From Spirochaetia bacterium (GTDB lineage: Bacteria > Spirochaetota > Spirochaetia > SZUA-6 > Bin103), in the NCBI GenBank assembly GCA_965203055.1, contig OZ241863.1, forward strand, positions 1,888,001 to 1,952,000: a stretch of 64,000 nucleotides of DNA. The letters run 5' to 3'. Shown here piece after piece: positions 51,212-52,602 of this stretch. Numbering within the stretch: the stretch's first letter is position 1; every line of letters starts with the position of its first letter. Both the position numbers and the translations under genes were made by a program. The notes beneath the pieces are model-generated. The model was not told the DNA's origin. It did no database searches and worked only from the letters and a program-made list of their open reading frames with translations.

Positions 51212-51240
51212 TTGACTCAACTACTTTCCATGAGTATACT
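51212..51240 (+). promoter_or_regulatory. Near-consensus sigma70 promoter, leaderless HNH transcript
   Basis: TTGACT-17 nt-TATACT; ATG at 51247 is 6 nt after the -10; no SD. Confidence 0.75.
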
Positions 51241-51246
51241 TATGTC

Positions 51247-52602
51247 ATGGACAAACATGCTTCCGACGAGGCTGTCACCACTACCGTTTCCGCCCTCTCA
51301 GACGACCGCCTGCTGGAGCGGACCAAGGAACTTTCCGGCATCGAACACCATCTCGAAGTCGTCGTGATCGACCACCTGCGCGAGATTCATAGGCGCCGCC
51401 TGTATCTGCGCCTTGGCTTCTCCAGTCTGTTCGATTACGCGGTGCGCGAGCTGGGTTACAGCGACGCCGCAGCGTGGCGGCGCATCAAGGCGATGCGGCT
51501 CTGCGCGGACGTCGAAGGCGTGCGTGCACGCCTGCAGGATGGCTCGATGACGCTGAACGCGGCCGCGCAGTTGCAGCATGCGTTCGACCGGCAGGAGCGC
51601 AAGAAGGAACGCGCGGCGCGTAGCGCGCCGGGCGGGGCCGGGTTCGGGGCTGCCTCTCAGTCGCAGAACGGCTCGGCGCCGTCGCGGCCGGCGGAGTGGA
51701 AGCCGGCGCCGACGCCGGTGCTGGACGCGGAGGCGCGGCGGGAGCTGGTAGAGCAGGCGTCCGGCAAGAGCAGCCGGGAGGTGATGCAGTTGCTGGCCGA
51801 GGTGGACCCGGAGCTGGCGGCGTCGGCGGATCGGGTGCGGCCCCTGGGCGGCGGGCGCTGGGAACTCAAGGCGGTGATCGACGATGAGTGCCGGCGCGGC
51901 TTGGAGCGGCTCAAGGGCCTCCTGTCCCACGTCGATCCGCACATGACGTTGGGACAGCTCATGGGGCGGCTGGTGCGGGAAGGGCTCGACCGCCACGATC
52001 CGGCCCGGCCGCCGCGCGGGCGGCGCGCCGCGCCGGCCAAAGGCGCCGCGCAAACTTCGGCGCCGAAGACGCAGGCGGCCTCGGCTCGCGGAGCCGCTTC
52101 GGCAGCGAAGCAGGTGGCCGGCGTGGACCGCGCCGATCCTTCGGCGGCGAAGGTATCGGCTCAGACGCCGGCGCACCCGGGAGACGAAGCCGCTGACCGC
52201 CCGGACACTTCGGCAGCGAAGCCGGCGGGCGACGCCACTTCGGCGCCGAAGACGCGGCGCCTCGGCCGGCCGGCTGCGGCGCGCGCGCAGCCGGCTGCGC
52301 CGCCGCGGACCCGGACTTCGGCAGCGAAGACGGGCGTGACCGGCCGCGCCATCCCGGCGGCGGTCAAGCGCGAGGTGTGGCGGCGCGACCGGGGCCGCTG
52401 CCGCTACGTGGACCGCACCAGCGGGCGCCGTTGCGGCTCCCAACACCTGCTGCAGATCGATCACGTCGTGCCGTATGCCCTCGGAGGCGCCGCCGAGCCG
52501 AACAATCTGCGCCTGCTGTGCGCCGCTCATCACCGCTACCGCCACGCCGGCGCCGGATGCGGCCGCCCCGGCGAGGATCGTCAGGCGCCGGTAGACCGGT
52601 GA
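51247..52602 (+). CDS. HNH endonuclease with DUF222-like N-terminal helical domain
   Basis: N-terminal LSDDRLL..RLYLRLGFSSLFDYAVRELGYS..RRIKAMRL; C-terminal VWRRDRGRC..RC..LQIDHVVP..NNLRLLCAAHH. Confidence 0.88.
   Translation: MDKHASDEAVTTTVSALSDDRLLERTKELSGIEHHLEVVVIDHLREIHRRRLYLRLGFSSLFDYAVRELGYSDAAAWRRIKAMRLCADVEGVRARLQDGSMTLNAAAQLQHAFDRQERKKERAARSAPGGAGFGAASQSQNGSAPSRPAEWKPAPTPVLDAEARRELVEQASGKSSREVMQLLAEVDPELAASADRVRPLGGGRWELKAVIDDECRRGLERLKGLLSHVDPHMTLGQLMGRLVREGLDRHDPARPPRGRRAAPAKGAAQTSAPKTQAASARGAASAAKQVAGVDRADPSAAKVSAQTPAHPGDEAADRPDTSAAKPAGDATSAPKTRRLGRPAAARAQPAAPPRTRTSAAKTGVTGRAIPAAVKREVWRRDRGRCRYVDRTSGRRCGSQHLLQIDHVVPYALGGAAEPNNLRLLCAAHHRYRHAGAGCGRPGEDRQAPVDR
52055..52329. repeat. 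Six dispersed 14-bp palindromes CTTCG-N4-CGAAG inside the HNH gene
   Basis: Starts at 52055, 52097, 52139, 52208, 52238, 52316; centres GCGC, GCAG, GCGG, GCAG, GCGC, GCAG. Confidence 0.9.

Follow-up and report, generated by a model that had tools for sequence, protein, structure and literature searches.

A 64,000-nucleotide stretch of DNA from a Spirochaetia bacterium (GenBank assembly GCA_965203055.1, contig OZ241863.1, positions 1,888,001 to 1,952,000 of the forward strand), referred to as a whole as the window, carries a gene for a 451-residue HNH nuclease (P0001; 51247..52602, plus strand). Within the region that encodes its linker (about residues 257-366; 52015..52344, plus strand), six short palindromes are written in frame. 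These palindromes are selected as nucleic acid, not merely as peptide. A second, independent layer of selection in a coding sequence is rarely shown so cleanly: the linker is neutral as protein, yet within it islands of 14 bases have stayed fixed as nucleic acid throughout an entire family of bacteria. As to what reads them, structure models lead to the tentative prediction that the palindromes are binding sites of the gene's own product.

Six in-frame palindromes and a decayed second copy

The palindrome pattern, CTTCGNNNNCGAAG (CTTCG-N4-CGAAG, 14 bp), has 12 exact matches in the window against 0.11 expected, a count reached in none of 100 shuffles. In the HNH gene the matches start at 52055, 52097, 52139, 52208, 52238 and 52316. 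The start-to-start spacings of 42, 42, 69, 30 and 78 are every one a multiple of 3, and all six sites share one codon phase, ACT/GCT/CCT TCG GCR SCG AAG. Palindromes 1 (52055..52068) and 5 (52238..52251) both read CTTCGGCGCCGAAG and encode TSAPK. The sequence CTTCGGCAGCGAAG serves as palindrome 2 (52097..52110), where it encodes ASAAK, and as palindromes 4 (52208..52221) and 6 (52316..52329), where it encodes TSAAK. Palindrome 3 (52139..52152), CTTCGGCGGCGAAG, encodes PSAAK.

A second copy of the linker and of part of the HNH region, about 477 bp long, lies on the minus strand at about 37436-37912. It has decayed, with an in-frame stop and frameshifts, and is 93% identical to the window gene over 479 aligned bases. 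Two of its palindrome spacings are 41 and 77 in place of 42 and 78, which reflects the frameshifts. All six palindromes are nevertheless retained (37599-37871), one of them with the centre ACGG on the gene strand. A preliminary description of this DNA, made from its letters without database searches, had pointed out the six repeats with their multiple-of-three spacing, the full set in the decayed copy with its single ACGG centre and a varying peptide whose first codon always ends in T; the first two were located exactly as described, and the third extends to homologues, as set out below.

Selection on the palindromes as nucleic acid

The most direct evidence comes from shuffling synonymous codons within each gene and recounting the palindromes. 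Across 36 homologous open reading frames (ORFs; set 1) there are 67 palindromes, whereas 2000 permutations gave 2.35 +/- 1.47 and never more than 8. A second set of 54 HNH-intact ORFs holds 148, compared with 5.46 +/- 2.23 (maximum 14 in 300); it was drawn from 80 separately fetched loci, several of which share genomes with set 1, so that the replication is not independent. Constraint on synonymous positions at the palindromes, which the preliminary description had proposed to look for, is thus present in both sets.

The first codon of the motif is especially telling. Of the 183 x-S-x-[APTS]-K peptides in set 2, 163 (89%) begin with a codon whose last base is T, against 8.2% T at third positions overall, and in set 1 the codons are ACT (38), GCT (19), CCT (9) and TCT (1). 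The T is kept while the encoded residue changes between T, A, P and S and, at near-miss sites, also D, V, I and G, with GAT, GTT, ATT and AGT among the near-miss codons. Since the residue varies while the T stays, the constraint acts on the base and not on the residue.

Polymorphism among 16 intact copies in the host genome points the same way. Outside the motif codons, the proportions of synonymous (pS) and nonsynonymous (pN) differences in the linker are 0.089 and 0.104, a pN/pS of 1.17. At motifs 1, 3, 4, 5 and 6, pS falls to 0.030 and pN to 0.026. In the same copies pN/pS is 0.11 for N-terminal residues 12-126 and 0.21 for the HNH domain, which implies that the protein is under purifying selection in many copies at once.

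Over larger distances the contrast between motif and surroundings becomes sharper. In homologues at 50-65% protein identity the sequence and length of the linker are wholly different, yet between one and seven exact 14-mers are kept, always in the form xCT TCG NNN NCG AAG. The four central bases vary: in the 67 sites of set 1 they read GCGC in 25 and CCGG in 11 and are non-symmetric in the remaining 31. The supposition of the preliminary description that the repeats are selected at the nucleotide level therefore finds agreement in the permutation tests, the T-ending codon, the low pS and pN of the motifs within a neutral linker and a compensated variant described further below.

Several observations count against cis-acting sites of this kind. 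Palindrome 2 is the least conserved, most sister copies having GCC TCG or GCC CCG at that place, and 3 of the 54 HNH-intact ORFs contain no exact site. More generally, all sites in intact frames stand in one codon phase, which speaks for common descent and peptide tolerance and means that the instances are not independent. Because they are related by descent, the argument for selection rests on their survival amid synonymous and linker positions that have turned over.

The corresponding alternative is that the palindromes have no function and are a by-product of a repeated linker peptide written in favoured codons, spread by duplication and kept by descent, gene conversion or quasi-palindrome correction. 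The shared phase would follow readily from this, as would three of the five arm pairs, which arise from favoured codons alone (TCG, GCG/CCG and AAG give TCG..CGA); linkers also gain and lose units in frame, as in the 81-bp tandem units of the homologue L032 and the deletions in copies c59, c48 and c57. Such an origin does not predict a T-ending first codon that persists when the amino acid changes, nor sites that are kept while the surrounding linker turns over completely between genomes, nor a motif pS that is one third of that of the neighbouring linker. In the divergent subfamily discussed below, moreover, a compensated variant alters the peptide (K to N) and retains the symmetry. Nor is there a genome-wide tendency to complete palindromes: among TCG-N4-CGA cores outside the family, inner T..A flanks number 161 against 205 expected. 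A by-product without function is for these reasons quite improbable. Quasi-palindrome correction was also considered in its own right, as a genome-wide mutational bias, and was not seen in the TCG-N4-CGA flank counts outside the HNH family.

Distribution of the gene family and its palindromes

The host genome (4.56 Mb, 68.8% G+C, one contig) contains 254 palindromes, compared with 5 for a reversed control pattern. They are grouped as 48 arrays of two to six sites and 46 singletons, and 216 of the 254 lie inside loci of the HNH family. The preliminary description had also offered REP-like sites as a possibility; the extragenic dispersal of such elements is not what is seen, most of the sites lying in HNH-family loci, within the coding linker. 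A nucleotide comparison (BLASTN, gene plus flanks) recovers 63 such loci, about 87-93% identical, of which 40 are close to full length. Of the 24 copies that align to the protein in one piece, 21 retain an open frame of 425 codons or more.

Among related genomes, 20 of the 23 from the host's taxonomic family contain the gene family, each with between 1 and 79 matches, and 17 genomes from the order's other families yielded a single weak match. When one genome per species was scanned, 269 relatives came up, and the 80 retained all lie in Spirochaetia or Spirochaetales metagenome-assembled genomes. Palindrome counts follow this distribution. Genomes with the HNH family carry 20-254, three sister genomes without it carry 6, 8 and 14, and genomes of other taxonomic families carry 2-54. 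The palindromes go with the gene family, not with the genome.

Relatedness among the copies does not always follow that of the hosts. A genome placed in a different genus (G011) has copies 90-91% identical to the window copy, and genomes of the same genus reach at best about 50-57%. The near-identity hints that the cassette described below has passed from one lineage to another, or at a quirk of taxonomy.

Linkers themselves can expand by regular steps. In L032 (G007:C39) seven palindromes recur with an exact 81-bp period (six intervals of 81 and one of 156), and this linker grows through tandem duplication of 27-codon units, one site per unit. Among distant relatives, P0196, P0245 and P0264 repeat other linker peptides six to eight times, around SSEKS, SEQSDRSE and GSAPGQ.

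A matched site variant in a divergent subfamily

A divergent subfamily, B, represented by five loci in two genomes, repeats a related but different unit in frame, GGT/AGT TCG GCG CAG AAC C. Its site is GTTC[G/T]GCGC[A/C]GAAC (GTTC-N6-GAAC; for example GTTCGGCGCAGAAC), and its peptide is G/S-S-A-Q/P-N. Compared with the main site, the outer pair has changed from C..G to G..C, a switch allowed by the replacement of lysine with asparagine. The 17 sites of this kind all share the same phase, against 1.25 +/- 1.10 after permutation. Genome-wide counts of GTTC-N6-GAAC (102-164 per genome, 37-72 for the control) are too noisy to serve as a measure.

The type of site is accompanied by the type of protein. 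ORFs with the strand motif [WY]E[LIMF]K or YTLK and the helix motif G[KM]S.R[EQ]V together hold 222 sites of the CTTCG..CGAAG type, and in six ORFs with Y[AE]VR and NKSARET, 17 of 18 sites are of the GTTC[GT]..[AC]GAAC type. The pattern suggests that what is conserved is the symmetry of the site, and that the type of site follows the type of putative DNA-reading motifs.

Within the main family the arms behave differently. Arm covariation, another check that the preliminary description had proposed, is absent there: of 42 variants with two mismatches, 3 are compensated against about 1.6 expected by chance. Compensated CTCCG..CGGAG was seen twice. Among single mismatches about 10 of 50 are compatible with G-U pairing, no more than transitions alone would give. 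The outermost C..G pair, the one that is exchanged in subfamily B, is the loosest arm position.

Predicted structure of the protein

The HNH domain occupies residues 367-433 (52345..52545, plus strand). Its match to PF01844 covers residues 395-433 (E 5.9e-7; 30 bits against a gathering cut-off of 21.4), and residues D405, H406, N420, H428 and H429 are invariant or nearly so among 24 homologues. In a Pfam scan of the 451-residue protein HNH alone was recognised, DUF222 (PF02720) giving no match at E<0.1. For 4 of 15 distant relatives DUF222 scores reach 15.9-22.4 bits, below the 24.4-bit gathering cut-off, and a neighbouring cluster in the ESM Atlas bears the DUF222 name, with PF02720 in 12% of its members. 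The preliminary description had named both domains; its HNH assignment holds, and 'DUF222-like' is a fair label for the remainder, a putative rather than an established member of DUF222. The N-terminal half has 7,589 cluster representatives as distant relatives (E<=0.001). A relation to IscB/HEARO was considered and dropped, as NCBIfam gave a weak match limited to the HNH region (22 bits against a cut-off of 175).

A full-length AlphaFold model consists of a confident helical N-terminal part, a disordered linker (residues 258-366 in this model) with a predicted local distance difference test (pLDDT) score of about 30 and a small HNH domain. On a deeper alignment, an AlphaFold2 (AF2) model of residues 1-262 reaches a pLDDT of 86.3. 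The N-terminal half (residues 1-256; 51247..52014, plus strand) is delimited by the AF2 model, fold matches and pN/pS, and appears to contain a helical part resembling KorB and ParB (about residues 32-190), followed by a beta-alpha-alpha part resembling ribbon-helix-helix proteins (about residues 204-253). For both models the top rows of a Foldseek search are the DNA-binding domains of ParB, SopB and Noc, weakly matched at E 0.5-3. VIA-align comparisons of the full model gave KorB (Z 6.7, root-mean-square deviation (rmsd) 3.2 over 99 residues), KorB with its operator (Z 6.1), ParB-parS (Z 6.1), Spo0J (Z 5.3), SopB (Z 5.0) and VirB (Z 4.9). Residues 204-253, a strand followed by two helices in the N-terminal model, match ribbon-helix-helix proteins at Z 4.3-5.2 and rmsd 1.8-3.5. 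The best of these are the TraM N-domain (Z 5.2, rmsd 2.2) and NikR (Z 4.7, rmsd 1.8), and MazE, pCXC100 ParB, Reg576 and TacA also match. A search of solved structures with the family's sequence profile retrieved HNH domains only and no solved ParB protein. The assignment of KorB/ParB-like and ribbon-helix-helix-like folds is a consistent lead and not a result.

Whereas the best of three controls gives 0.05, residues 1-262 modelled as a homodimer score 0.71. That mark is attained by 20 of 30 proteins solved as one-chain pairs, but by only 1 of 23 whose solved form is a single chain. Between runs at least 88% of contacts coincide, and the partner has a pLDDT of at least 75. In the predicted interface strand 204-211 lies antiparallel to its counterpart (208 with 208), as in ribbon-helix-helix dimers. 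From these models the N-terminal half looks like a dimeric DNA binder.

What the palindromes may be read by

Given a candidate reader with two-fold symmetry, the palindromes would be cis-acting nucleic-acid sites written into the disordered linker because nowhere else would the protein put up with the codons they need. On the best-supported reading, though one judged somewhat less likely than not, they would be operator- or parS-like sites of two-fold symmetry, bound by the dimeric N-terminal half of the product of the same gene, in which KorB/ParB-like helix-turn-helix and ribbon-helix-helix-like parts would form a DNA-binding dimer tethered by the linker to the HNH nuclease. Binding might bring about autoregulation or a roadblock of the strong leaderless promoter described below, or might hold the nuclease on the gene's own copies. 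The number of copies has an ordinary cause of its own, namely the cassettes with ends of resident insertion sequences (IS) considered in the next section, which presumably move in trans.

A number of results tell against the sites being bound by the gene's own product. Co-variation between site and protein amounts essentially to one phylogenetic split and is suggestive, not statistical. The fold matches all have Z below 8, or Foldseek E of at least 0.5, a range in which a common helical arrangement may explain the likeness, and with the N-terminal-only model the winged-helix domains of Cdt1 and MCM outrank KorB. The dimer score may likewise reflect nothing more than likeness, ribbon-helix-helix dimers being common among solved structures. 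Finally, the linker RNA is predicted to fold with a minimum free energy of -205 kcal/mol, compared with -175.7 +/- 5.3 kcal/mol for shuffles (z -5.5); palindromes 2, 3, 4 and 6 form local hairpins of 5-6 bp and palindromes 1 and 5 pair together, so that a role in RNA fits as well.

That last result supports the chief rival reading, an action in the messenger RNA, where hairpins or long-range pairings would stabilise the transcript, pause ribosomes between the synthesis of the two folded halves or yield small RNAs, the guide-like pieces of the preliminary description. The sites always lie within a transcribed and translated stretch, and the compensated changes, GTTC..GAAC in subfamily B and the two instances of CTCCG..CGGAG, are of the kind that base pairing would produce. 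The arms of the main family, though, stay invariant across about 50% protein divergence, and neither their compensated double variants nor their G-U compatible changes rise beyond what chance and transitions would give. In the commonest form of the subfamily-B site the inner position of the arm opposes G to A, a mismatch, and a 5-bp stem is in any case weak. An action in the messenger is on this evidence unlikely, if still to be reckoned with. Sequence-specific arms, the lack of a wobble preference and an N-terminal half that resembles a dimeric DNA binder together favour protein-bound DNA over guide-like RNA.

The protein that binds could also be another one: a host regulator that silences the gene, a restriction-modification or methylation enzyme, or an accessory or enhancer factor of transposition. 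Many dimeric regulators typically recognise palindromic sites of the 5-N4-5 kind, other transposons are known to contain internal enhancer-like sites, and the ancestral form of the element appears to have carried a DrmMI/type IIG methyltransferase, of which a remnant persists. A transposase-specific role is made unlikely by the occurrence of the same palindromes with the ends of two unrelated IS families. Outside the family the motif shows no special use, CT..AG flanks of TCG-N4-CGA cores numbering 38 against 34.5 expected. An element would also be expected to lose, not to keep, sites through which it is silenced or restricted, and the type of site tracks the type of the element's own protein. 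A reader other than the gene's own product is rather unlikely.

Binding by the gene's own product may be extended to a more far-reaching, and frankly speculative, proposal, which we regard as rather doubtful. The nuclease would form a self-recognising module in which a dimeric ribbon-helix-helix/helix-turn-helix protein reads the in-frame palindromes and acts on its own copies, each gene copy being an address for the product, and reader and site co-evolving as A/B pairs in a protein-DNA 'kin recognition' system carried by any IS vehicle. The outcome could, for example, be nicking, with copy-to-copy recombination and spread, or policing of the expression of the family.

Transposase-less cassettes with the ends of two IS families

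The unit that is repeated in the host genome corresponds to positions 50902-52692 of the window (about 1.79 kb). Homology between copies starts at a left terminal inverted repeat, GGGCGCACTTCCAATTTGTTGGTAC (50902..50926, plus strand), and in most copies stops at 52691-52693, where the right terminal inverted repeat, TACCTTTTGGGAAATGCGCCC (52672..52692, plus strand), is an imperfect inverted match to the left end. Apart from the HNH ORF the unit contains only the decayed 3' end of a DrmMI/type IIG methyltransferase-like gene (50927..51140, plus strand), recognised by alignment of upstream regions. This remnant has been shortened by different deletions in different copies and is longer in c24 and c48. 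At one locus of the host genome (L013; G000:C1:2835151-2842128) a 613-residue ORF lies directly upstream of the HNH copy (minus strand, 1828-3666) and matches the N- and C-terminal parts of DISARM DrmMI profiles (PADLOC, 1.3e-86). This ORF is a methyltransferase with an internal deletion and suggests that the ancestral cassette carried a whole DrmMI/type IIG gene.

With up to four mismatches, the 23-nt end word occurs at 33 genomic sites, most of which adjoin HNH loci. Nine of them are the ends of a 1.5-kb IS whose ORF belongs to the ISKra4 family (NF033572, 2.6e-63). In another genome of the taxonomic family (G022) the HNH gene lies between different ends, GGGTCTTCAGGAATTCGTGTGG and its inverted partner. 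These are the ends of a 1.34-kb IS with an ORF of the ISL3 family (NF033550, 5.1e-96), and the five loci examined have 8-bp target duplications, four perfect and one matching at 7 of 8 positions. The host genome shows a clear target duplication at one copy (locus 10), whereas that of the window copy is imperfect. Consistent left boundaries were found in two further genomes. At the ISKra4-like transposase loci of G022, G003 and G021 neither type of cassette end is present, and the 1.5 kb around each of the homologues L002-L012 revealed no ISKra4-type end. The cassette contains no transposase, and the HNH protein has no match to any transposase family in Pfam or NCBIfam.

Judged from these boundaries, the HNH gene is cargo of transposase-less cassettes whose bounding inverted repeats are those of two IS families or more; the transposases of resident IS presumably mobilise these cassettes in trans. 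Because the terminal repeats are shared with IS that bear a transposase, it is they that account for mobility and copy number, and not the palindromes; and because the palindromes are common to ISKra4- and ISL3-ended cassettes, they are not transposase sites.

These results also bear on the proposal of the preliminary description that the gene is a self-contained mobile element of repeats, spacers and nuclease. The mobile character was upheld, and the element is present in many copies. The element is not self-contained, its ends being those of IS, and it is not a repeat-spacer system. A CRISPR-like array that captures in-frame spacers has on its side a superficial look, identical short repeats alternating with unique stretches of varying length. 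The supposed spacers are, however, orthologous coding sequence in all 45 aligned copies, differing by substitutions and in-frame insertions or deletions, and the stretches between palindromes have no match in phage or plasmid collections. The repeats are 14 bp long, lie inside an ORF and keep to one reading phase, and the 1.8-kb cassette contains neither acquisition machinery nor a cas gene. Spacer capture, as the preliminary description had imagined it, is accordingly extremely improbable.

Relation to known systems

The ingredients of this element are of known kinds, namely DUF222-like HNH genes in many copies, passenger cassettes and palindromes tolerated in ORFs. The closest relatives in architecture are the REP13E12/DUF222-HNH genes of mycobacteria and other actinobacteria, with the same helical N-terminal half, low-complexity linker and C-terminal HNH domain; both are genes of uncertain function present in many copies per genome. 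Within a passage of PMC10589994, 'REP13E12/HNH endonuclease/DUF222' is named among repetitive elements. The present gene differs in its host, an uncultured Spirochaetia lineage, and in that its protein does not match PF02720 at the threshold given above. If the sites are the protein's own targets, the DUF222-like HNH superfamily, including the REP13E12 repeats, would gain its first concrete lead, a defined DNA sequence on which binding and cutting could be tried, and it would become apparent how a nuclease gene stays under selection in dozens of copies on different transposons. In the open-access literature nothing was found on the biochemical function of DUF222-HNH proteins, nor any report of a nuclease of this type whose linker carries short in-frame palindromes selected at the nucleotide level, together with a matching variant in a subfamily. 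To our knowledge, conserved palindromes in frame have not been described from DUF222 genes.

As vehicles, the cassettes resemble mobile insertion cassettes and non-autonomous IS derivatives, which likewise combine the inverted repeats of a resident IS, target duplications, one passenger and many copies with the lack of a transposase. They differ in that the same passenger is found between the ends of two IS families and is under strong purifying selection in dozens of copies.

As a candidate pair of protein and site, the closest parallels are ParB-parS, Noc-NBS and KorB-OB, in which helix-turn-helix proteins bind palindromes of 13-16 bp; here the predicted fold may be similar and the candidate target is a multi-copy palindrome of 14 bp. 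A number of parS sites fall within genes, that of parB/spo0J among them. The present protein differs from the ParB type by its attached nuclease and its ribbon-helix-helix-like part, and its candidate sites lie in frame in its own linker. The N-terminal CTPase domain of ParB was not detected in the HNH protein with Pfam, and the parS consensus has only two sites in the host genome, each with two mismatches.

Other palindromes are also known in coding sequence. Like the sites described here, PARCELs (PMC2996958) and RPEs are dyad-symmetric repeats in ORFs, tolerated in frame and tied to mobile DNA. PARCEL units encode a 25-residue amphipathic domain in tandem (PMC2996958). RPEs are insertions of roughly 100-150 bp. 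The unit in the HNH gene is 14 bp long and dispersed in the disordered linker of one family, with arms that are specific to that family. With CRISPR arrays the likeness is confined to short identical repeats and unique stretches; repeat length, coding status, spacer origin and associated genes all differ.

Promoter and neighbouring features

A promoter-like sequence, TTGACT-17-TATACT (51212..51240, plus strand), precedes the HNH gene with 10 of 12 consensus matches and ends 6 nt before the ATG, a leaderless arrangement. The preliminary description had already recognised this near-consensus leaderless promoter, and the arrangement is conserved in sister copies and in homologues of other genomes. 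In most copies a 13-bp palindrome, ACTTGACTCAAGT, overlaps the -35 box (the 51205-51225 region in the window, and its counterparts in sister copies) and is a possible operator; the window copy has one mismatch (ACTTGACTCAACT).

Just to the right of the cassette, in the region 52722-53060, the next gene encodes 101 residues (52755..53060), and an AT-rich TCGAGA-16-TATAGT ends 5 nt before its ATG. With a promoter-like site so close to this start as well, leaderless starts may be common in the host organism. The 101-residue gene is followed by a 342-residue ORF (53074..54102) that has a DPPY motif and resembles a DNA methyltransferase.

Elsewhere in the host genome there are 78 copies of GGAGT-N4-ACTCC, where 5-mer frequencies would predict 3.3. 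Of all well-populated 5-N4-5 palindromes outside the HNH family, none departs more strongly from expectation, and this one may represent a further dispersed repeat.

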